A stretch of DNA of 21,248 nt from a virus (IMGVR_UViG_2563366853_000009:1-21248); one strand, 5' to 3'. Shown: positions 577 through 21,248, counted from the stretch's first letter. Program-made: numbers and translations. Notes: generated by a model not told the origin, from the sequence alone.

Positions 577-849
577 ATGAGTGATTTATTACTAATTAAA
601 AACTGGTTAATTGACCATCATGCACTATCGATTTTCTTTGGGTTTTTATCGGCTGGGTTATGGATCAAATCAGCAACAGCCAAAGTCAAAACAGGTAGAA
701 GCACCGTTGTAGCAATTACATTTGATGATCCCAAAAAAAATGTAGATCTTCACGAATTTTTCTTAACTGCGCGGTTACAGTCTAAATATAACTCATATGC
801 AGCTTTCGCTGCTGCTGTAACTGTGATTTTGCAAATGGCTGGCTATTAG
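577..849 (+). CDS. Hypothetical small hydrophobic protein, oriented opposite to the late operon (bor-like position)
   Basis: ATG at 577 in frame with track ORF 532..849; hydrophobic stretch ALSIFFGFLSAGLWI; AT-rich; weak RBS. Confidence 0.3.
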   Translation: MSDLLLIKNWLIDHHALSIFFGFLSAGLWIKSATAKVKTGRSTVVAITFDDPKKNVDLHEFFLTARLQSKYNSYAAFAAAVTVILQMAGY

Positions 850-937
850 AAAACCTTAACCAGGATATTATTTACCTTTATCAATATCAGTTAACGACTC
901 AAAGTGTAATGGTTCCACATTCTCCTAATGGAGTTAT

Positions 938-1051
938 TTACTCGCCCGTCTCGGTAGCCAGCTGCATAAAGCCATTAACCAGCTCAGGCTGACGTCGTGA
1001 CGTCTTGCCCGTAAAGGTTTCGCCTGTTTGGGTTTGGTAGATGTCGGACAT
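938..1051 (-). CDS. Small ORF (37 aa) MSDIYQTQTGETFTGKTSRRQPELVNGFMQLATETGE
   Basis: ATG at 1051-1049 preceded by AAAGAGG with 6-nt spacer; below the 60-aa track cutoff, found by reading the minus strand. Confidence 0.25.
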   Translation of the reverse strand: MSDIYQTQTGETFTGKTSRRQPELVNGFMQLATETGE

Positions 1052-1165
1052 TGAGAGCCTCTTTATCTGCTTGTGGGGATATATGGTTAATTATCCTCTG
1101 TAGGGGATACTGCCATCACAATGGAGAGAATCATCGTAATGGCAATAAAAACCGCCCATAGGCAG

Positions 1166-1573
1166 TTAATCTGAAAGACCAAATTTCTTTTTTGCGTAGG
1201 ATTTTAGAAGCTCTACACCAACATCTTTCAATACCGATAATGGTTGATCGCTAATTGTTTTTAGCTTCTTAAAAACATCCTTTTGTTGAAGGGTTTCTGC
1301 AAACTCTTGGCCTGATGACGTGAGTCTTACATTGGCTGGCCATTCACGGATTTCATTAAGCCCAATAGTAAGTCCTAATTTCTTAGGATCGCCTATTTCT
1401 AGAAAATGGTTACTGATATAACCTCTCTCAATCAATTGGTAGTAATGAAAGAGTCCTTTATCGCTGCTTATTTCGTATCCAGCTTTTTTAAGGTCATTAG
1501 CTGATATCAATGGTCCGCCAGCCTTAATAAAGACCCCTAACATTCCCTTCAAGTATTCCAGATCGGTCTGCAT
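1166..1573 (-). CDS. Hypothetical protein, AT-rich moron between Rz and terS
   Basis: 135-aa ORF on late strand directly after Rz; AT-rich relative to flanking phage genes; no recognisable family. Confidence 0.5.
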   Translation of the reverse strand: MQTDLEYLKGMLGVFIKAGGPLISANDLKKAGYEISSDKGLFHYYQLIERGYISNHFLEIGDPKKLGLTIGLNEIREWPANVRLTSSGQEFAETLQQKDVFKKLKTISDQPLSVLKDVGVELLKSYAKKKFGLSD

Positions 1574-1631
1574 AAATTACCTCCATCCTGAGAAATAGAG
1601 ATAATATTACCCTTAAAATTCTTCATTAACA

Positions 1632-2093
1632 CTAATTTGAACACTGCTCTTTGATGTAGTCCTGCAAGTAGCCGACCTGCTTCGTCACTGTGACGATTCG
1701 CTCTCTGAGGGTGAAATAATCCCGTTCAGCGGAGTCAGTAAGTCCGGGGCTGGAAGCATCGCCCAAGCTGCCGGTGCCGGTCTTTCCGCTCGCTGGACAT
1801 CGGGCATTGAAGTGCAGCCCACACTTGCCAGTGCGAACACAACGCTGCAGATCATCAAGCTGCTTTTTCGCATCAGCTAGTTCTCCGGTGTATTTAGCAT
1901 CGAGTGCATCAGCATCACGCTGGCGCTGCTGCATGTCAGTAATTGCCGCGTTCGCCAGCTTCAGTTCTCTGGCATTTTTGTCGCGCTGGGCTTTGTAGGT
2001 AATGGCGTTATCACGGTAATGATTAACAGCCCATGACAGGCAGACGATGATGCAGATAACCAAAGCGGAGATAATCGCGGTGACTCTGCTCAT
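1632..2093 (-). CDS. Rz: Rz i-spanin
   Basis: 153 aa, N-terminal TM segment, coiled-coil-like body; start overlaps R stop (ATGA); contains embedded Rz1 frame. Confidence 0.85.
1685..1873 (-). CDS. Rz1: Rz1 o-spanin lipoprotein, embedded in Rz in +1 frame
   Basis: 62 aa with lipobox LASVGC, proline-rich segment and [10 protein letters not shown] motif matching lambda Rz1. Confidence 0.75.
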
Positions 2094-2566
2094 ACCTCAA
2101 TCTCTCTGACCGTTCCGCCAGCTTTTTTAAATCGGGCAATCAGGTCACCGATTTTATGTTCATACTGACCGTAACCTGCACCAGGTAACGACGCCCAGAT
2201 ATTGCTGCAACGGTCGATTGCCTGACGAATACTGCCGCGGTCAATCATCGGTAAAGCACCACGCTCTTTAATCTGCTGCAGAGCTACAGCGTCCTGGCTT
2301 TCTGGAGAAAAATCTTTCAGGCCAAGCTGTTTACGGTAAGCATCCCACCAGCGTGAAAGAAGCTGGTAACGTCCGGCGGCTGTTGATTTGAGTTTGGGGT
2401 TTAGCGTGACAAGTTTGCGGGGGTGATCGGAGTAATCAGTGAACAGTTCGCCACCAACAATAACATCATAACCGTGGTTACGTGTCGGTTGTCGCCCGTT
2501 ATCCGTTCCTTCTGACCATGCCACCATATCCAGGAAAGCTTTACGCTGTGAATTTAGTGCCTGCAT
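2090..2566 (-). CDS. R: Endolysin, lambda R-type lytic transglycosylase
   Basis: 158 aa; near-identical over most of its length to lambda R as recalled ([19 protein letters not shown] ... GGTVREI). Confidence 0.9.
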
Positions 2567-2569
2567 AAA

Positions 2570-2911
2570 TTACTCCTTCGATCTACCAAATTTGTTACCG
2601 ATTACTCGCATTGCAGCCCCACGAATAGCATCGACACCGATCAGCCCCACGCCACCACCAATGGCAACAGAAAGCGATTTAGGCCATCCGACATACTCAA
2701 GAGCGGATGCAAAGGTCAGCGTCAGAGCGCCACATAGCAAAATCTCGAGCGTTTTTCGCTTCCAGCCACCACCACCGCCAAAATAGGCGATGCGCAAACC
2801 AGCCATAACGATCGACATAATCACTGCGCCCAGCGGTGTGTCTCCACGCCACCAACTTTGTAAGAGTTCCAGTAAGTCAGGCCAGGAATGAGGGACATTG
2901 TGCATTTTCAT
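2570..2911 (-). CDS. S: Class I holin, lambda S-like, with dual-start motif (Met-Lys-Met)
   Basis: ATG-AAA-ATG at 2911-2903 preceded by GGAGGTG; in-frame GTG further upstream at 2920; C-terminus similar to lambda S. Confidence 0.8.
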   Translation of the reverse strand: MKMHNVPHSWPDLLELLQSWWRGDTPLGAVIMSIVMAGLRIAYFGGGGGWKRKTLEILLCGALTLTFASALEYVGWPKSLSVAIGGGVGLIGVDAIRGAAMRVIGNKFGRSKE

Positions 2912-3009
2912 AAGCCTCACCTCCGAAAGTTCGGATGGTGCTAAATGTAAGATTCAGGCTCTCTGGCTTGCTCACAAGAAGTCGAGGATGTTTCCGGAGC
3001 CTAACAACG

Positions 3010-3034
3010 AAAAAGCCCCGGGACATGCCAGGGC
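3010..3034 (-). terminator. Rho-independent terminator-like hairpin about 100 nt upstream of holin
   Basis: Minus-strand GCCCUGG-CAUGUCC-CGGGGC (one G-U) followed by UUUUUCGUUGUU. Confidence 0.45.
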
Positions 3035-3128
3035 CAGATGGAGTACCAGATTAAGCTTCTGGCGGTATATCCTCGTGTTTGATATCGTTAAATCGCCAAA
3101 AGTAACCATATCAATTAAAGGAGTATAT

Positions 3129-3407
3129 ATGGCTAGTTTTACTGTCCGCGTTGAGCTTGTGGGTGCATCATCCGATGACTACGCTCGCCTTCATGAGGCG
3201 ATGGAATCCCGAAGATACTTTCGCGAAATTCAAGATGGAGCAGGAAACTGGTTTTATCTTCCAGACGCTGAGTACACAGCCGAAAAAAACGCATCTGCTC
3301 GCGCAGTCCGAGAAGAAGTTGTAGCCATCGCTGGGACAATAAAAAAGAACCCTCGGGTGCTAGTCACTCAAGCGGCAGATCGCTCATGGCATTTAATCAA
3401 GAAGTGA
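3129..3407 (+). CDS. Hypothetical small protein (92 aa), cargo gene opposite to late transcription
   Basis: ATG at 3129 with AAAGGAG RBS; MASFTVRVELVGASSDDYARLHEAMESRRYF...; no confident family assignment. Confidence 0.5.
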   Translation: MASFTVRVELVGASSDDYARLHEAMESRRYFREIQDGAGNWFYLPDAEYTAEKNASARAVREEVVAIAGTIKKNPRVLVTQAADRSWHLIKK

Positions 3408-3623
3408 GTTTTGATCGCCATTAACGGGTATTCCGTTCCCGCTACGCCCCTCACCAACCTCAGGGGCGCTTTCATAGCGCTCCATCGCAATAAACGCGGC
3501 AGCGATGCAATGCCCCAAATTTTCAAAATCATCCACCCCCGGGTTAGCCCGAGCCACAATGAACTGACCCAGTGTGATTTTGGCCTGAGATCGGGAATCA
3601 GAAGATAATTCATAAAATTTCAT
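3393..3623 (-). CDS. Hypothetical small protein (76 aa), convergent and 3'-overlapping with 3129..3407
   Basis: ATG at 3623 with GGAG 7 nt upstream; terminator hairpin immediately upstream. Confidence 0.35.
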   Translation of the reverse strand: MKFYELSSDSRSQAKITLGQFIVARANPGVDDFENLGHCIAAAFIAMERYESAPEVGEGRSGNGIPVNGDQNSLLD

Positions 3624-3635
3624 GGGTGTTCTCCA

Positions 3636-3665
3636 GAAACAACAAAACCCGCTCAATGGCGGGTT
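3636..3665 (-). terminator. Rho-independent terminator downstream of ORF6N gene
   Basis: Minus-strand AACCCGC-CAUUGA-GCGGGUU followed by UUGUUGUUUC. Confidence 0.45.
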
Positions 3666-3760
3666 CTGGTAAAGTTCATGCGCTTGATTCGCCTCGCGAT
3701 ACAGCTTTGCGAAGCGTACTGGAATTGAAGCAGTTTATGGCTAAAATTGCAAGAACTTTT

Positions 3761-4372
3761 TTAAAGCTGCATCAGCCTTTCCACCAGTTTATCTCTGCGA
3801 ACAACAAACCAACCATTGGCTCTCGCCAGTTCCAGCCATGACTCAAGGGAAATAACAATATCATCATCCCGCAACTGAATTGTGGAAACAGTGACACCGC
3901 CTTGCTGATAACAGAGAACTCGCGTGTCGTAACTTTTCTGGCATGAAACTGGCGCTGACGGATCCTTTTGTCTGAAATAGCAGTCTTCCAGTCTTTCGAA
4001 CACATCCCACGCCTGATCGGTTTCGAGCATTTTGGCATGACGGGCTGCTCCGCGTTCTGTCCAGAGTATGAGGGAGCGGGCTTTCGGGGAAATTTGTAAC
4101 CCTCTTAAAGATGGTTGCAAATTTTGTGAGTTACTTAAAGTAACCCGCAAATTTTGTGAGTAGTTTAAAGCTACCCGCAATTCTTTAAGGTCATTACCAA
4201 CAACTTTGAAAAAGTGTTTCCCTTCAACGAAGCGTACTTTGTTCTCATGATGATTCTGGCGAATACGCACCGGCTCAGTGCCGTAAAGCTGCGCCAAAAG
4301 TTCGGTGGTAATAACAGGAATCTGGTTATGGGTGATCGGGGAGAGAGTTTCAACAGAAATTTGAGTTGTCAT
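3761..4372 (-). CDS. ORF6N/KilA-N-like (antirepressor-type) domain protein with internal tandem repeat
   Basis: 203 aa; N-terminal region matches the ORF6N pattern as recalled (RF-EG-HFFK...SPKARSLILWTERGAARHAKML); repeat inserted within the domain. Confidence 0.6.
   Translation of the reverse strand: MTTQISVETLSPITHNQIPVITTELLAQLYGTEPVRIRQNHHENKVRFVEGKHFFKVVGNDLKELRVALNYSQNLRVTLSNSQNLQPSLRGLQISPKARSLILWTERGAARHAKMLETDQAWDVFERLEDCYFRQKDPSAPVSCQKSYDTRVLCYQQGGVTVSTIQLRDDDIVISLESWLELARANGWFVVRRDKLVERLMQL
4093..4180. repeat. Tandem ~30-bp repeat inside the ORF6N gene, each unit with an internal palindrome
   Basis: Two full units AAATTTTGTGAGTNNNTTAAAGNNACCCGCA plus a partial; encodes LRVALNYSQN/LRVTLSNSQN. 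Confidence 0.7.
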
Positions 4373-4530
4373 AATGACGCCCTCTGGTGGTTTCTTAATA
4401 ACTCACCACCGACGACGCCAATCGTCTGGTGGTGAACTGTGCAGGGTTGGCGTAACCGGGAAACCGACCGGCGCGGATCTCTCCGCCCCCACACAGCCCA
4501 CCATAATTCAGATGTGCGCGTGCATACGAC

Positions 4531-4555
4531 AATAAAAAACACGCTCGCGGCGTGT
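4531..4555 (-). terminator. tR'-like terminator about 90 nt downstream of Q
   Basis: Minus-strand ACACGC-CGCGA-GCGUGU followed by UUUUUUAUU. Confidence 0.45.
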
Positions 4556-4616
4556 ATCTGTCGCGGTCTCTATCCAGGACGCCAATCCCGACGCCAGATT
4601 TTGCTGGCGCGTGAGG

Positions 4617-4646
4617 AATATAGCCCCGGATAACAGATTGAGTCAA
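4617..4646 (-). promoter_or_regulatory. Candidate late promoter (pR'-like) overlapping Q stop codon
   Basis: Minus-strand TTGACT, about 18-nt spacer, TATATT; -35 overlaps the Q TGA. Confidence 0.35.
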
Positions 4647-5197
4647 CAGACGGTTTTTAGATCCCCGGAAGAGAATGCATCACGCATCGGCAGATAGAGC
4701 ATAAACTCTGCCATTTTCAACCACGCATCTATGCGATTACGGCACGTGGCGTAACACCACTCAGGGTGTGAATCATTCAGCAATTCAGCCATTTTTCGCT
4801 TAGTCATCCCCCGCCCTTCATATCGTTGCCGGAGGATACAAATCAATCCTGGGTGTTCTGCCAGCACTTCACTAATCACCCGATCAATGCATAACGCCTC
4901 TGCATCAGTACAATGCACCAGCCAGCTTTTTTGCTTGCCGTTGATCATATCCCGCAAAAAAGCCTCAAGTTCAGGTTTGTCCAGACCTGCTTTTTTCATC
5001 CTCCGGAGCGCCTCGTTAATTGCCGTTTTTGTCAGCTTTTTAGAGGTCAGCAACTGGTTGAACATATTTCCCGTCTTACCGCCGCCAATATACGACCAGC
5101 GCCCCCACATGCGCAGTTTTCCCTGAATCCAGACACTTTCCAGCGTGGTGAGACGAAGGTGTTCCCCGCTTTTGCCTGTATTTGTTGGGTAAATCAT
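4643..5197 (-). CDS. Q-like late-gene antiterminator
   Basis: 184 aa from ATG at 5197 overlapping upstream stop (ATGA); LRMWGRWS motif resembles LERWGAWA of QuuD-type Q proteins as recalled; followed by promoter and terminator. Confidence 0.55.
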   Translation of the reverse strand: MIYPTNTGKSGEHLRLTTLESVWIQGKLRMWGRWSYIGGGKTGNMFNQLLTSKKLTKTAINEALRRMKKAGLDKPELEAFLRDMINGKQKSWLVHCTDAEALCIDRVISEVLAEHPGLICILRQRYEGRGMTKRKMAELLNDSHPEWCYATCRNRIDAWLKMAEFMLYLPMRDAFSSGDLKTVC

Positions 5198-5484
5198 AAA
5201 TAACCTTCCTTTCTCCAGATTTCTTGCGTACGAAAAACACCTTCTGCATGCATCAGGCGTAATTCTTCTTTGGTGTAATCGCTGGTTTTTAGCCGCCCGT
5301 CGATTAAATCGTGGCATGAGCTGCAGGCAATCGCTGCCTGCATATCGTGTGGTTTTGTCGCTGTTCCGCACGTCCCCGCCAGCCTGTAATGCGCCAGCAC
5401 AGAAGTTTCGGGATTGTGATTGCAGTAGCCAGGAATTCTGACGGTGCACATCTGCCCCCGCGCCGCTTTACGTAAATCCACCAT
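5194..5484 (-). CDS. YbcO-like DUF1364 protein (Cys-rich putative nuclease)
   Basis: 96 aa; close match to recalled DLP12 YbcO (MADLRKAARG-C-VRIPG-CN-NPETSVLAH ... CSSCHD). Confidence 0.75.
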   Translation of the reverse strand: MVDLRKAARGQMCTVRIPGYCNHNPETSVLAHYRLAGTCGTATKPHDMQAAIACSSCHDLIDGRLKTSDYTKEELRLMHAEGVFRTQEIWRKEGYL

Positions 5485-6083
5485 TACGCAAACTCCAGTA
5501 ACTGCGCGGCCACATTTTCGACTTCCTCCGGAGAGGAAAATTTACGGAACAGGATCCAGTTCCACAGCACATTCAGTACAGATTTATAAACCTGCTGAAA
5601 CACGGTTTCGTCCATGTTCGCAAATGCGATAGATTTTGCCCTGCGCCCACGACTACCATCAGGATAAATATGCTCGGTGTAAAATCCGGCCTGAATGGTT
5701 ACCCACTCGCGGAAAGCGTCAAACGACTTTAGCAATGCCGTATCCCGGGTTCTGCATGTCGCAACTGTATTAAGGTATTGCTCTGCGGCATCACTCAGGG
5801 CTGGAGTGTGTTCCCGACCTACTGATTCGCACAGGTAATCAACGAAGCCTGATACCAGTTTTCGTTCGCGAGGCGTGATCGCCCCACCGACCGGAGTCCA
5901 GTAATCGAATCCCAGTTGCAGGAGTTTGAAAAAACGCTTGTGGAATGCGTAGTTACGCACACGCTTAAAGTCTGCGTGTATCCACTCACCTATTTTGATT
6001 TGATGCAAAAAATCGCAACTCTCCGGCGTCGCCGGGAGAAGTAATCCGGAAGAGGTTTGTTTGACCAGTTGTATATGTGCCAT
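5484..6083 (-). CDS. Nin-region hypothetical protein (possibly DUF1367)
   Basis: 199-aa ORF whose stop overlaps the ybcO-like start by 1 nt; family assignment from memory only. Confidence 0.5.
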   Translation of the reverse strand: MAHIQLVKQTSSGLLLPATPESCDFLHQIKIGEWIHADFKRVRNYAFHKRFFKLLQLGFDYWTPVGGAITPRERKLVSGFVDYLCESVGREHTPALSDAAEQYLNTVATCRTRDTALLKSFDAFREWVTIQAGFYTEHIYPDGSRGRRAKSIAFANMDETVFQQVYKSVLNVLWNWILFRKFSSPEEVENVAAQLLEFA

Positions 6084-6149
6084 CGGCTTTCTCCGGTGGC
6101 ACGGTGTTACTCAGCAGGGGTTCAACCCTGCACTGAATTGTAGATGAAC

Positions 6150-6410
6150 TCACTCACATTCAAAAGCAGAAAAGCCAGCCTTAATTCCAGTCTCTTTCAG
6201 CGCCCGTAATGACGTGACAAACTCATCTCCACGCAAAAGAAAACCGTCCGTCACAAGTCCGTCCGCGAAATAAATTAACGCTGCTCCACTCTTTCTTTGC
6301 TGAAATTGTAAACATTTAATGCAGCGGTGACTGACAATAACGCCATTCTCAACGCGCACAGCATAGAGGCCATTTTCACTAAAAATTTCACGCAATTCTT
6401 CGATTTTCAT
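6150..6410 (-). CDS. Hypothetical protein (86 aa)
   Basis: ATG at 6410 with GGAAGGA RBS; candidate TTGATT-16-TAGAAT promoter upstream. Confidence 0.45.
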   Translation of the reverse strand: MKIEELREIFSENGLYAVRVENGVIVSHRCIKCLQFQQRKSGAALIYFADGLVTDGFLLRGDEFVTSLRALKETGIKAGFSAFECE

Positions 6411-6527
6411 CTTCAGAATCCTTCCAGATAAATAGCTCTTCCCCTTCGGGGTCCATCCCTCTTCTCCCTGCGCGCTACTTAAGTGAGTCGATTCTATCTG
6501 CGAAGGTGCGCGAATCAAATTCACCGG

Positions 6528-6584
6528 AAATAAACAACAAAAAAACCCGCCGAAACGCTGAGAGATCACAGCGATGGGCGGGTT
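6528..6584 (-). terminator. Rho-independent terminator of the hok transcript
   Basis: Minus-strand AACCCGCC...GGCGGGUU with inner CGCUG/CAGCG stem, followed by UUUUUGUUGUUUA. Confidence 0.5.
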
Positions 6585-6654
6585 AAGTGCGGGTGCGTTG
6601 AGGATGCCTGACACATCAGAGGTGGCGAGGGATTTCTCCCTCGCCTGGTCACTC

Positions 6655-6810
6655 TTACTCCTCAGGTTCGTAAGCTGTGAAGACAGAGACCTCCGTCTGG
6701 CCGGTTCGGATTCGTACCTCGCAGAGGTCTTTCCTCGTTACCAGTGCCGTCACTATGACGGTTAAACAGATGACGATCAGGGCGATTAACATCGCCTTTT
6801 GCTGCTTCAT
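6655..6810 (-). CDS. hok: Hok/Gef-family type I toxin
   Basis: 51 aa MKQQKAMLIALIVICLTVIVTALVTRKDLCEVRIRTGQTEV... matches Hok family (single TM, conserved C-E-x-R); in-frame upstream extension to 6867. Confidence 0.85.
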   Translation of the reverse strand: MKQQKAMLIALIVICLTVIVTALVTRKDLCEVRIRTGQTEVSVFTAYEPEE

Positions 6811-7062
6811 AGCCTGCTTCTCCTTGCCTTTCGGCACGTAAGAGGCTAACCTACGTTTGTATAGCATAGATTGGGCCTCAGATTAATGTTAAGCGTCTTG
6901 CCGGACGCGTAATGTTAACTGGGGCTTTTCTCTATCTGCCTTTGGTGTTCATGCCTGAGGCAGATAGCCTCAAGCACCCGCTGTCATTCTACTTAAGTTA
7001 GGTAAGATTTTCTATGGTATTTCTCCACGTTCCATAAATACGAACGTGTATTATCATTTTTA

Positions 7063-7320
7063 TCACAGGTGTGAGGAAAATATATAGTGACCTTCATCAA
7101 GCGTAACGAAATACACCTCCCATTCATCTCCATTCTTCAATTTAATGCGAAGGCTTTCTCCACGAGAATATTTATCAAACAACTGATTCGATGTGCTAGT
7201 AAGAGGTATTTTTACCGTTGTAACAACTATTGCACTACCATCCGATTCTCTCAACTCCACATCCACATCCACAAAAGATGAATGTATGTTATATTCCGGA
7301 TATCCAACAATTATTTGCAC
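7063..7320 (-). CDS. Hypothetical small protein (85 aa), AT-rich moron
   Basis: AT-rich ORF with AAGGAG 5 nt before GTG at 7320; flanked by AT-rich intergenic regions. Confidence 0.4.
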   Translation of the reverse strand: MQIIVGYPEYNIHSSFVDVDVELRESDGSAIVVTTVKIPLTSTSNQLFDKYSRGESLRIKLKNGDEWEVYFVTLDEGHYIFSSHL

Positions 7321-7438
7321 ATTCACTCCTTAAAGACAGTAATTAAAATAAAAAAACCAATATATCATCTTGTTTTATAACATGAGGTGTGTGTCAAAGG
7401 AAGGTTCATAGCACACCTACTTACATGTTTTTACTAAC

Positions 7439-18707: not shown

Positions 18708-18902
18708 ATGAGATATGACGATGTTAAACCATGTCCGTTTTGTGGTTGTCCATCAGTAACGGTGAAAGCCATTTCAGGATATTACCGCGCAAAGTGTAAC
18801 GGATGCGAATCCCGAACCGGCTATAGTGGAAGTGAAAAAGAAGCACTCGAAAGATGGAATAAACGAACTACTGGAAATAATAATGGAGGTGTTCATGTAT
18901 AA
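18708..18902 (+). CDS. ralR: RalR (Lar) restriction-alleviation protein / type I toxin
   Basis: 64 aa MRYDDVKPCPFCGCPSVTVKAISGYYRAKCNGCESRTGY...; alternative start at 18696. Confidence 0.8.
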   Translation: MRYDDVKPCPFCGCPSVTVKAISGYYRAKCNGCESRTGYSGSEKEALERWNKRTTGNNNGGVHV

Positions 18903-19044
18903 AATTACTGCCACTATTGAAAAGGAAGGTGGCACTCCTACTAACTGGACAAGATATTCAAAATCTAAATTAACGAAATCAGAATGCGAAAAAAAATGCT
19001 CTCAGGGAAAAAAGAAGCAGGCGTTTCCAGAGAGCAGAAAGTAA
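18895..19044 (+). CDS. ydaC: YdaC-like small protein
   Basis: ATG at 18895 with GGAGGTG RBS; MYKITATIEKEGGTPTNWTRY...; overlaps ralR end. Confidence 0.5.
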   Translation: MYKITATIEKEGGTPTNWTRYSKSKLTKSECEKKCSQGKKKQAFPESRK

Positions 19045-19140
19045 AGCTGATAAATTTTAATTGCGAGAAACTTCTGTCCTCGTGAGTTGCATTATATACA
19101 AATTAGAACTTCATAGCTGATTATTAAAAATCAACCACAT

Positions 19141-19191: not shown

Positions 19192-19473
19192 ATGAATCTT
19201 GTGACACTCAAAACGTGGGGAAAACTCAGATATCCGGATAACCCACCATCAATATCAACGCTGAGACGATGGGCAAGGAATGGAAACATTTATCCTGCAC
19301 CTGAACTACACGGGAGGAGTTACAGGGTGGTTCCGGAGGCTTTCTATATCAACCCAAATAAGGTTGATACCGATATAACACACCATCAGCCTAATGGGCG
19401 ACAAGGGAGAGACAGTCCATTACTGGAGAAGTTAAAACATGCAGCGGAAAAAATACGATCCCAATTTGCCTAA
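19192..19473 (+). CDS. xis: Excisionase-like protein
   Basis: Small basic ORF directly upstream of and overlapping int; AAGAGG RBS 7 nt before ATG at 19192. Confidence 0.6.
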   Translation: MNLVTLKTWGKLRYPDNPPSISTLRRWARNGNIYPAPELHGRSYRVVPEAFYINPNKVDTDITHHQPNGRQGRDSPLLEKLKHAAEKIRSQFA

Positions 19474-20515
19474 AAACTTAACATATCGAAGGAGGGACAA
19501 AGCATATTACTGGCGCAACCCTCTGACGAAAGAAGAATTTACACTAGGTAAAATTTCAAGAAGAGATGCAGTAGCGCAGGCAATTGAAGCAAATCATTAT
19601 ATATACAAAAACTACTCTCCTGCTGCCTTAATTGAAAAGCTTAAAGGGTTCGACTCATTTACTATGGCAGACTGGATTGAACGTTACAAAACGATTCTTA
19701 TAAGGAGAAAAGTGTCCAGAAATACTTATAAAATTCGGGTAAATCAACTGGAGACAATAAAAGAAAAATTGGGAGGGATTTTACTGACAGAAATAACAAC
19801 TCGCCATATTGCCGAGTTTCTTGATTTGTGGATTGAAGGAGGGAAAAACACAATGGCAGGATCAATGCGTTCTGTGTTGTCTGATATGTTTCGCGAGGCC
19901 ATTGTTGAAGGACGTATATCTCAAAATCCAGTAACGCCAACAAGAGCACCGAAAATAGTAGTTACAAGAGAACGACTGAAACTAAAGACATACAACTGCA
20001 TCAGGGAGGCAGCAGATCAACTTCCGGCATGGTTCCCATTAGCTATGGATTTAGCCCTTGTAACAGGACAACGTCGCGAAGACATAACGAATATGCGGTT
20101 CAGTGATATTTATGACGATCGTCTCCACATCAGGCAAATTAAGACAGGAATGATGATTGCTATCCCCCTGTCACTCAGCCTTCCTGTCGCTGGTCTACGG
20201 CTTGGTACAGTAGTTGAACAGTGCCGCCTGGTAAGCCGGGGAGATTATCTAATCAGTGCCGGGATTAGAAAAAACAGCCCTGACGGCAGCATTCACCCGG
20301 ATGGCCTGACAAAAAAATTTGTCGCAGCCAGAAAATTAACAGATATCCAGTTCAGTGAAAACCCACCAACTTTTCACGAGATCAGAAGTCTGGCTGGACG
20401 ATTGTACAAAGAAACATGTGGAGAAGAATTTGCTCAGCGTCTACTTGGCCACACATCGGAGAAGACAACAAAAATGTATCTTGATGAGAGAGAAAAAACG
20501 TACTTACTGCTCTGA
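19439..20515 (+). CDS. int: Tyrosine integrase, lambda Int family
   Basis: 358 aa; C-terminal catalytic region [11 protein letters not shown]...LLGH...MYLD parallels lambda Int as recalled. Confidence 0.85.
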
Positions 20516-20562
20516 TTTTAACGTAAATGGATTGTTAAATGTATTTTGGTTGTGATATAACC

Positions 20563-20611
20563 AAAAAAGACCGGAATACAGAAATTCGAGTAAATTTCGG
20601 GGAATTTCGGG
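20563..20611. repeat. att-proximal repeats: partial copy of SdsR terminator 3' half plus tandem AATTTCGGG motifs (candidate core/arm sites)
   Basis: AAAAAAGACCGGAATACA at 20563-20580 resembles 20647-20663; AAATTTCGGGGAATTTCGGG at 20592-20611. Confidence 0.4.
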
Positions 20612-20646
20612 AAAACGTTTGCAACTGATTGATTTTAAATACAATT

Positions 20647-20749
20647 AAAAAAAGACCGAATACGATTCCTGTATTCGGTCCAGGGAAATGGCTCTTGGGA
20701 GAGAGCCGTGCGCTAAAAGTTGGCATTAATGCAGGCTTAGTTGCCTTGC
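20647..20749 (-). ncRNA. sdsR: SdsR (RyeB) small RNA with its intrinsic terminator
   Basis: Minus-strand GCAAGGCAACUAAGCCUGCAUUAAUGCC...GACCGAAUACAGGAAUCGUAUUCGGUC-U7 matches recalled SdsR; CTATTCT sigmaS-type -10 just upstream. Confidence 0.6.
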
Positions 20750-20835
20750 TCTTTAAGAATAGATGACGACGCCAGGTTTTCCAGTTTGCGTGCAAAATGG
20801 TCAATAAAAAGCGTGGTGGTCATCAGCTTAAATGT

Positions 20836-20878
20836 TAAAAACCGCCCGTTCTGGTGAAAGAACTGAGGCGGTTTTTTA
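20836..20878. terminator. Bidirectional rho-independent terminator downstream of yebY
   Basis: A-run, AACCGCC...GGCGGTT interrupted stem, T-run. Confidence 0.6.
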
Positions 20879-20906
20879 TTGGAAATCAAAAGGCTATTTT
20901 AGGTAA

Positions 20907-21248
20907 TTAACAGAGTTTTTCAGCTCGCTCTATAAACGGTGCCAGACTCATTTTTTCGCCGGGATTGTTAGGATCATCAATCTGAATCACCGAAATGGGT
21001 TGGGCTTTAGTCTTCCCACTGGCAACTTCCTTTTGTGCGATATCGTTTAAAGGATACTGCACGAGAGTACTTGGGTTAATGACATACAAAGCATTACCCG
21101 GTCGGCAAGTCAGCATCACCTCTTCGCGATTAAACGCCCATTTGTCTTTACCTACTTCAAAACGGCTGACGGTAATCACCTGCGGTGCCGCCAGCGCAGC
21201 TGCAGAACTGGTGAGTAACAGAAACGCCAGAATACTTTTTTTCATCAT
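20907..21248 (-). CDS. yebY: YebY-like periplasmic DUF2511 protein (host gene)
   Basis: 113 aa with signal peptide [20 protein letters not shown]; matches recalled E. coli YebY; start codon at window edge. Confidence 0.75.

Follow-up and report, generated by a model that had tools for sequence, protein, structure and literature searches.

Positions 6528–7062 of a viral DNA sequence (IMGVR_UViG_2563366853_000009) hold a short toxin reading frame surrounded by RNA hairpins, and raise the question of whether these elements form one complete toxin–antitoxin locus, a decaying remnant or a set of unrelated parts. We analyzed this region within the whole 21,248-nucleotide stretch of DNA, hereafter the window. 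The original prediction had called the region a hok-family type I locus and expected, but did not place, a Sok-like antisense RNA and an overlapping mok frame. With a probability of about 90%, we conclude that the locus is a complete hok/mok/sok type I toxin–antitoxin module of the hokD/hokW subgroup, carried in a lambdoid prophage of E. coli. The family assignment is upheld by a 118-bit match to Rfam RF01794 and by 93% DNA identity to the hokW/mokW/sokW system of phage 933W. The copy is ordinary, in that its family, its subgroup, the presence of such loci in lambdoid prophages and its regulatory architecture have all been described before.

The exact sequence is already present in public assemblies. 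Window positions 655–12867 share 100% identity with contig KB732288.1 of assembly GCA_000350765.1, and a minimum of four independent assemblies or sequencing runs retain the identical locus. The right-hand end of the window consists of the E. coli yebY flank (99.4% identity), with the SraC/RyeA and SdsR RNAs just inside it; the host prophage is integrated beside ryeA/sdsR–yebY in E. coli, and the module occupies the nin region, with the replication genes on one side and Q on the other. Gene order on the minus strand runs P22-Cro-like, YdaT-like, DnaT-like, lambda-P-like, hok, Rem, DUF1367, YbcO, Q-like antiterminator and lysis genes, a lambdoid early-right and nin-region neighborhood in which hok has the same orientation as the operon. 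This synteny is common to the window, K-12 Qin (rem–hokD) and phage Rac 442/2. An 87-amino-acid open reading frame upstream of hok has no Pfam match, and a direct Pfam scan also returned no match for the 86-amino-acid rem-like frame, though the domain table of the window gives PF27490 (Rem). In thousands of E. coli genomes PGAP names the homologous locus hokD, and 4,728 of 5,426 complete genomes match the region; at 80% or more coverage of the 651-nt query, only 42 complete E. coli genomes match, the best of them ~94% identical.

The coding part of the locus comprises two nested frames and a putative editing site:

6655–6810, minus strand: hok toxin gene, 51 amino acids, MKQQKAMLIALIVICLTVIVTALVTRKDLCEVRIRTGQTEVSVFTAYEPEE, with the SD sequence AAGGAG at 6825–6820.
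6655–6867, minus strand: mok reading frame, 70 amino acids, in frame with hok and sharing its stop codon.
6669–6672, minus strand: the Tyr47 codon in its UACG context, where TadA might edit A to I (Tyr to Cys), read from the sequence.

A 51-amino-acid Hok-type toxin had been predicted at this site, and the product of the 6655–6810 frame matches the full profile (1–42) of Pfam PF01848 (HOK_GEF) with 80.1 bits and E = 8.7e-23. It is 98% identical to K-12 HokD, 90% to HokW, 80% to HokC and 39% to R1 Hok. The protein has the features of Hok/Gef membrane toxins, with a length of ~50 amino acids, an N-terminal hydrophobic helix and the conserved Cys, Thr-Arg and Glu, and it keeps all 11 columns that are invariant among six Hok proteins as well as Cys30. 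A42S is the single difference from K-12 HokD, at a position that varies naturally among relatives (A/S/T). Inactivating changes in hok, which the original prediction had named as grounds for doubt, were not found on comparison with the six Hok proteins, and the locus carries no IS element, frameshift or deletion.

The overlapping mok frame that had been expected from family knowledge can likewise be placed. The mokW ATG of 933W maps by alignment to position 6867 and hokW to 6810–6655, a GAGG SD sequence sits 8 nt upstream of the predicted mok start, and the same in-frame arrangement is found in the annotated mokC of K-12. By analogy with relatives, hok translation would be coupled to mok translation. 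The UACGAA motif at the possible editing site is almost invariant in an alignment of 36 sequences, and editing of hokD in K-12 occurs at 6% (PMC12214031).

The hok transcript and its local structures are as follows:

6986–7014, minus strand: predicted hok (mok-hok) promoter, −35 TAGAAA, 17-nt spacer and −10 TAGAAT (6991–6986), scoring 9/12 in a consensus scan.
6538–6979, minus strand: predicted full-length hok mRNA of ~442 nt, with its 5′ end at G6979 by homology and its 3′ end at the terminator.
6953–6975, minus strand: candidate metastable 5′ hairpin of the nascent transcript, GCUUGAGGC / GCCUCAGGC.
6932–6967, minus strand: leader hairpin, CTATCTGCC (6932–6940) / GGCAGATAG (6959–6967), 9 bp extending to 10 bp.
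6624–6645, minus strand: post-stop hairpin, GGCGAGGGA (6624–6632)-TTTC-TCCCTCGCC (6637–6645), a perfect GC-rich 9-bp inverted repeat.
6538–6584, minus strand: intrinsic terminator, AACCCGCC...GGCGGGUUUUUUU, a GC-rich stem of 8 bp whose loop holds a nested 5-bp hairpin, with U7 after it.

Nearly all related loci carry a TAnnnT hexamer that ends 6–7 nt upstream from the GGG conserved at the 5′ end, and the 5′ box GGGUGCUUGAGG is conserved in relatives. The full 450-nt transcript (6979–6530) folds with z = −7.55 and 36 related loci preserve the helices through compensatory changes, so the features of the locus go beyond chance. All three hairpins of the original prediction are present. The hairpin said to lie right after the hok stop codon starts 9 nt past it and folds at −18.2 kcal/mol (z = −6.7 against shuffles); it is 95.6% paired across the alignment, with four pairs changed on both sides. 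We predict it to be the 3′-terminal protective stem of the processed hok mRNA, by analogy with the equivalent R1 stem, which protects the 3′-processed mRNA and whose role was established by mutagenesis (PMC9841398). The 9-bp hairpin of the presumed leader folds at −17.3 kcal/mol (z = −5.7), lies inside the tac stem, is found in both conformers described below and is 91.4% paired in 36 loci, three pairs having changed on both sides. The intrinsic terminator, which had been proposed within 6528–6584, was found at 6584–6538 with a fold of −22.4 kcal/mol (z = −5.9); its loop holds a 22-nt insertion relative to K-12 hokD, and this insertion forms the nested hairpin. A simple terminator scan did not pick up 6584–6538 because the nested hairpin makes the loop exceed the 8-nt limit of the scan. 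Of the regulatory signals, the consensus scan found the hok promoter only, and the Sok promoter and the terminator were set by homology and folding. The first 27 nt alone (6979–6953) fold into GCUUGAGGC/GCCUCAGGC at −15.8 kcal/mol (z = −3.9), a structure that is also an inverted repeat and whose sequence is conserved in the 36-sequence alignment; following the R1 model (PMC9841398), this hairpin would sequester tac in the nascent RNA.

Four further elements on the same strand form the conformational switch:

6968–6979, minus strand: tac, GGGUGCUUGAGG, at the extreme 5′ end of the mRNA, whose partner is fbi in the full-length RNA and ucb once the 3′ end has been processed.
6591–6603, minus strand: fbi, CCUCAACGCACCC, 12 bp with tac plus one bulged C.
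6921–6927, minus strand: ucb or anti-SD box, AAGCCCC, partner of the mok SD in the closed form and of tac in the open form.
6842–6879, minus strand: Sok target hairpin of the open form, in which the mok SD GAGG (6879–6876) pairs with the dcb GCCUC (6846–6842).

The analysis itself shows every sequence element and its position, two alternative folds and the covariation of their helices. The closed form is the minimum-energy fold of 6979–6530, in which tac GGGUGCUUGAGG pairs with fbi CCUCAACGCACCC and GCCCCAG pairs with CUGAGGC (ucb with the mok SD). The open form is the minimum-energy fold of an RNA ending at 6612, with GGG(U)GCUU paired to AAGCCCC (tac/ucb) and GAGGC paired to GCCUC (SD/dcb). 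In the resulting target hairpin the mok AUG lies in the stem, the loop reads CUAUACAAA (6864–6856), and the Rfam consensus structure agrees. Among the end points folded, only 6612 gave the open form, and RNAs ending at 6620 or 6600 had other minimum-energy folds with no open conformer; given this sensitivity to the end point, the open fold rests partly on covariation, beyond energy alone. The folds computed here reproduce all three states of the plasmid R1 model, in which full-length RNA is held closed by tac/fbi with ucb over the mok SD, 3′-processed RNA opens with tac/ucb and mok-SD/dcb stems, and the nascent chain carries a metastable 5′ hairpin (PMC9841398).

The fold-back and translational-activator architecture that the original prediction had attributed to its hairpins thus needs a correction of assignment: the hok-mRNA architecture is present, but none of the three hairpins is the tac/fbi pair, which is formed by 6979–6968 with 6603–6591. 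tac adjoins the 9-bp leader hairpin and lies outside it, and the fbi box, itself unstructured, lies after the post-stop hairpin and before the terminator. The post-stop hairpin was considered as fbi and ruled out, as the minimum-energy fold and covariation place fbi at 6603–6591.

A scan of one genome per species recovered 47 loci from Escherichia, Shigella, Kluyvera, Citrobacter, Photorhabdus, Erwinia, Pantoea and others. A tac-like 5′ box is kept in 37 of these loci, and 35 of the 37 have a complementary box 45–56 nt past the stop codon; the exceptions are the K-12-type hokC, with IS186 downstream, and the R1-type locus, for which the automatic duplex call gave no clean single fbi helix. The two boxes change together, as in GGGUGC/GCACCC versus GGGCGC/GCGCCC and GAGG/CCUC versus GAGA/UCUC. 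In hokB, tac U7 has become C and the fbi A has become G, and the change at position 7 is matched in ucb as well as in fbi. With the structure taken from one member of the 36-sequence alignment, whose sequences are related, the closed structure is 85.8% paired versus 40–45% with slid partners; 38 pairs have changed on both sides, and none of 500 shuffles reaches the observed covariation. On the same alignment the open leader is 86.5% paired versus 37–50% in controls. The tac/ucb helix is 99.6% paired in the 36 loci, with one both-sides change, in hokB, and the SD/dcb target hairpin has five pairs changed on both sides. Position 4 of tac is paired to fbi as U-A in 22 loci, C-G in 11 and U-G in 2; in tac/ucb this base is bulged, which explains its freedom to vary. 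The distal half of tac/fbi (pairs 7–12) is under-counted by column, since a one-base bulge shifts the register between subgroups; the helix is kept in the per-locus duplex calculation.

The antisense RNA and its promoter lie on the opposite strand:

6859–6929, plus strand: predicted Sok RNA of ~71 nt, possibly extending to 6935, with a 13-nt single-stranded 5′ tail, a long hairpin and then UUUUC.
6824–6852, plus strand: predicted Sok promoter, −35 TTGCCT (6824–6829), 17-nt spacer and −10 TAACCT (6847–6852).

Alignment with sokW and sokC places the predicted Sok inside the 6830–6930 interval in which an antisense RNA had been guessed. The annotated 933W sokW (71 nt, opposite hok) maps exactly to 6859–6929 on the plus strand with 67 of 71 positions identical, the annotated 5′ end of K-12 sokC aligns independently to G6859, and the predicted coordinates coincide with those of annotated sokW, sokC and sokB. 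The predicted RNA spans the start codon of mok and the 5′ flank of that codon as far as the ucb box, with the mok SD (6879–6876) under the 5′ arm of its hairpin; sokW of 933W is annotated as overlapping the first 9 nt of mokW. It folds at −29 to −31 kcal/mol (z = −4.7 to −5.5), and annotated SokC and SokB adopt the same fold. The Sok hairpin has an 18-nt insertion relative to SokC, the same as a 16-nt insertion in the Rfam alignment, and the hairpins of SokB and the R1-type Sok are also shorter than that of the window. A consensus promoter scan did not detect the Sok promoter, a poor sigma-70 match at 7/12. Its hexamers align with those of the R1-type locus (TTGCGC/TATCCT), sokB (TTGCCG/TAAGAT) and 933W, and a set of 36 loci all have a 17-nt spacer and a −35 of TTGCCT or TTGACC, while 30 of them have TAnnnT at the −10, a position where the six hokC-type loci read ACTCT. 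Conservation of the Sok promoter is inseparable from that of the overlapping hok SD and dcb. Among close relatives, 58% of columns are variable in the Sok 5′ tail and target versus 5% in the Sok hairpin.

The nearest characterized relatives are the hokW modules of Stx2 phages 933W and Sp5 (VT2-Sakai), which like the window module reside in lambdoid phages of E. coli. Over window positions 6996–6581, nucleotide identity to the 933W/VT2-Sakai mokW/hokW/sokW system is 93.0%; the 51-amino-acid Hok is 90% identical, the 70-amino-acid mok is in frame, and Sok has 71 nt with the same ends. The four Sok differences from sokW fall in or beside the recognition tail, the Hok C-terminus reads TAYEPEE versus VDYESEK in HokW, and the terminator also differs. 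The modules differ in position, the window copy lying in the nin region beside rem and the 933W copy near the right end after the tail genes. Experimentally, hokW–sokW is a toxin–antitoxin system of type I whose Sok activity depends partly on RNase III and Hfq, and which aids release of Sp5 after mitomycin C (PMC8621323).

Comparison with plasmid R1 hok/sok and chromosomal hok loci, proposed together with the original prediction, yielded the same element order as well as the closed and open folds. In R1 (parB) and the window alike, tac, metastable hairpin, ucb, mok SD, dcb, hok, 3′ stem, fbi and terminator follow one another with the same logic, and the antisense Sok promoter overlaps the hok SD. 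The R1 locus differs in that its Hok is only 39% identical, its Sok hairpin is shorter, its fbi spacing is different, its mok overlaps hok in another frame and it resides on a plasmid, whereas the window locus is chromosomal, in a prophage. In K-12 hokC/mokC/sokC (gef), Hok is 80% identical, mok is in frame and the SokC 5′ end aligns with the predicted Sok 5′ end, but IS186 lies downstream, fbi is lost and SokC is 59 nt long without the 18-nt hairpin insertion. K-12 Qin hokD (relF) has the toxin that differs by A42S, the same rem neighbor, the same post-stop hairpin and the same fbi box. The Qin order is rem–hokD–relE–relB, and the hok SD (AGGAGAAGCAGGCTATG) is the exact point at which homology with the window starts; upstream of this point the promoter, tac, ucb, mok start and sok, all present in the window, are replaced in K-12 by relBE (the end of relE). 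By this alignment K-12 hokD is a truncated locus and the window copy the complete form, in agreement with a published account in which a rearrangement has left K-12 hokD without components of the canonical system (PMC12214031).

Three other explanations of the region can be set against a complete and regulated module. It is very improbable that the hairpins are unrelated to one another, as terminators of neighboring genes or chance inverted repeats outside any single regulated mRNA. In principle, read-through from the upstream 87-amino-acid frame could also end at this terminator, and short inverted repeats are common here (10 pairs in 563 nt), but covariation of tac/fbi and of the local helices extends over genera as far apart as Escherichia, Photorhabdus and Erwinia, pairing collapses in the slid-partner controls, and the unit 6996–6581 moves as one block between the nin region and the right-end context of 933W. 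We give just as little credence to a literal reading of Rfam, in which the antitoxin RNA would be minus strand 6805–6979 and a plus-strand Sok would not exist. RF01794 is indeed named 'sok antitoxin', and it matches the minus strand at 118 bits (gathering score 59), full length over model positions 1–157 of 157 with position 1 at 6979 and one 16-nt insertion, against a sub-threshold 22 bits on the plus strand. Its last positions, however, fall on the hok SD and AUG (6810–6808), and its consensus structure, with the tac/ucb stem and the SD/dcb hairpin, is that of the leader; the model therefore describes the mRNA strand and is the hok mRNA 5′ leader, not an antisense RNA. Curated sokC and sokB of K-12 and sokW of 933W, moreover, all lie opposite the hok strand. 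The minus-strand match, covering the hok leader to the AUG, was rejected as an antitoxin gene. Besides the 22-bit plus-strand match, a permissive Rfam scan returned two meaningless eukaryotic matches.

The remaining alternative, that the locus is complete in sequence yet functionally silent, a decaying remnant like the K-12 chromosomal hok loci with killing or regulation lost, we regard as unlikely. Chromosomal hokA, hokB and hokC showed no post-segregational killing when tested (bioRxiv 10.1101/2025.08.07.668861), and IS elements or rearrangement are believed to have inactivated every one of the five K-12 loci except hokB (bioRxiv 10.1101/2025.08.07.668861; PMC12214031). Within the window, silence could be read from the 22-nt terminator insertion, from A42S relative to K-12 and from a target loop, CUAUACAAA, that has no YUNR (U-turn) motif. 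The YUNR U-turn in the Sok target loop, reportedly described by Franch et al. in 1999, is an accessory and non-defining feature; in the target-loop segment it occurs in 24 of 36 loci including 933W (CUGA) and is missing in 12 including the window, so the motif is not universal in the family. Against silence, there is no IS element, frameshift or deletion at the locus, position 42 is naturally variable among relatives, and both promoters together with tac, ucb, SD, dcb, fbi and the 3′ stem are intact and able to pair. The locus has also been kept identical in the independent assemblies noted above, and the 93%-identical hokW–sokW is active (PMC8621323).

For transcript ends, processing, toxicity and biological role of the complete module, we infer by homology with plasmid R1 hok/sok and phage Sp5 hokW/sokW the following course. 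The promoter with −10 TAGAAT would produce a stable ~442-nt mRNA on the minus strand from 6979 to ~6538, and during transcription the 5′ hairpin (6975–6953) would occupy tac. In the finished RNA, tac (6979–6968) would pair with fbi (6603–6591) and ucb (6927–6921) would cover the mok SD, a closed state that would permit neither translation nor Sok binding. Slow 3′ exonucleolytic trimming would then strip the terminator and fbi and halt at the GC hairpin 6645–6624, and in the trimmed RNA tac/ucb and mok-SD/dcb (6846–6842) pairing would present the Sok target hairpin and allow mok translation and coupled hok translation. The unstable 71-nt Sok (plus strand, 6859–6929) would bind through its 5′ tail and RNase III would destroy the duplex; once Sok was no longer replenished, the 51-amino-acid membrane toxin Hok would be made.

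Prophage maintenance, help with lysis on induction and phage exclusion have all been reported for members of this family. The role of the window copy is likely prophage-linked killing or lysis help on induction, as reported for hokW–sokW, and prophages show an enrichment for hok genes (bioRxiv 10.1101/2025.08.07.668861). Two further readings are put forward tentatively: (a) induction-linked toxin release through operon read-through and (b) diversifying selection on the Sok tail and target. In (a), the module lies in the pR early-right operon in the same direction (cro ... O/P-like ... hok ... rem ... Q), and antiterminated read-through on induction could meet sok transcription head-on and might in addition yield hok transcripts whose tac is not a free 5′ end. 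In (b), the variation of the Sok 5′ tail and target may reflect diversifying selection against cross-reaction of co-resident hok/sok copies, which occupy up to 10 places per genome. The completeness of the locus compared with K-12 hokD, its early-right operon position, the clustered variation in the Sok segment and the target loop without YUNR are small points worth recording.

Automatic annotation at such loci usually stops at 'HokD toxin', and the Rfam 'sok' match falls on the wrong strand for an antitoxin. The practical value of the analysis is a set of explicit coordinates for mok, Sok, tac, ucb, dcb, fbi and the processing stem; otherwise it matters little beyond annotation. For the family, the window copy shows the probable appearance of the rearranged K-12 hokD (relF) locus before relBE and can be used as an intact reference for the hokD/hokW subgroup. 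It is also a candidate for studying how prophage induction activates a type I toxin: if operon read-through does act as in (a), toxin release would be tied directly to prophage induction, which would offer a mechanistic explanation for the reported loss of sokW, dependent on RecA, and the reported rise of HokW in Sp5.

The window runs across a prophage–chromosome junction at 19439–21248, where an integrase-sized open reading frame is followed by the overlapping small RNA pair SraC/RyeA and SdsR/RyeB and then by yebY. The flanking sequence matches E. coli at 99.4% identity and was found in 5426 of 5426 genomes. Inward of this junction, an Rfam match of 215.6 bits identifies a RalA antitoxin RNA overlapping a 72-aa open reading frame that occupies the ralR position, and together these elements (18826–19081) are predicted to form a second type I toxin–antitoxin pair of the rac-prophage type. 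A further RNA cluster (4425–4623, minus strand) lies downstream of the Q-like antiterminator gene and directly upstream of an ORF6N-domain open reading frame, and looks like an antisense control module of the P1-immI-like or IsrK type in the late-gene regulatory region.

RNA elements and open reading frames accompanying the hok locus in the window
3761–4372, ORF6N-domain open reading frame
4425–4508, minus strand, C4 antisense RNA
4534–4610, minus strand, isrK
4571–4623, minus strand, c4 a1b1 target
18826–19044, plus strand, 72-aa open reading frame in the ralR position
18901–19081, minus strand, RalA antitoxin RNA
19439–20515, plus strand, integrase-sized open reading frame
20643–20787, plus strand, SraC/RyeA
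20647–20746, minus strand, SdsR/RyeB

Within the hok/mok/sok module, two insertions are subgroup-specific. Compared to K-12 hokD, the window terminator loop carries 22 additional nucleotides (6553–6574) that create a nested hairpin, and compared to sokC an 18-nt GC-rich insertion (6889–6906) lengthens both the Sok hairpin and its mRNA complement. The hairpins of sokB and R1-type Sok are likewise shorter than that of the window, whereas the 18-nt insertion is common to hokD/hokW-type loci, two Kluyvera loci (K. cryocrescens and Kluyvera genomosp. 3) and an unclassified Enterobacteriaceae locus. The hok Tyr47 codon UAC (6669–6672, minus strand) is embedded in UUACGAA, a motif that hardly varies among the aligned loci, is reminiscent of the tRNA-Arg anticodon loop and is intact in the window; TadA A-to-I editing is reported to convert Tyr to Cys at the equivalent position of hokC, hokD and hokE (PMC12214031).

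As in 933W and K-12 mokC, the mok frame of the window is that of hok. In contrast, mok as annotated in phage Rac 442/2 (MN652886.1, locus L057, 1655–1861) stops 7 nt short of the hok stop codon and therefore occupies a different frame. Either the frames genuinely differ, or the discrepancy lies in how the record was annotated. Copies 96–98% identical to the E. coli-type locus also occur under the labels Acinetobacter idrijaensis and Xanthomonas pisi, on tiny contigs of 275 bp (L020) and 431 bp (L029), as well as in a record titled Actinobacillus phage vB_Apl-pPE4 (H55); all three probably represent contamination or mislabelling.

Variation among closely related loci is concentrated where Sok meets its target.

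6856–6864, minus strand, predicted Sok target loop CUAUACAAA, lacking a YUNR (U-turn) motif

A YUNR motif is present in the target-loop segment of 24 of the 36 compared loci, including 933W, which has CUGA at the place where the window has none. In a set of eight close relatives of the hokD/hokW type, the Sok 5′-tail/target segment (window 6847–6872, mRNA positions 108–133) is variable in 58% of its columns. The corresponding figure is 5% for the Sok hairpin segment, 11% from dcb to the hok SD and 17% for the hok coding sequence. All four Sok differences between the window and 933W fall in or adjoin the 5′ tail. Genomes carry a median of 2 and a maximum of 10 hok-locus megablast places, and the pattern of sequence variability in the Sok tail and target may have arisen through selection to keep the antitoxins of co-resident copies specific.
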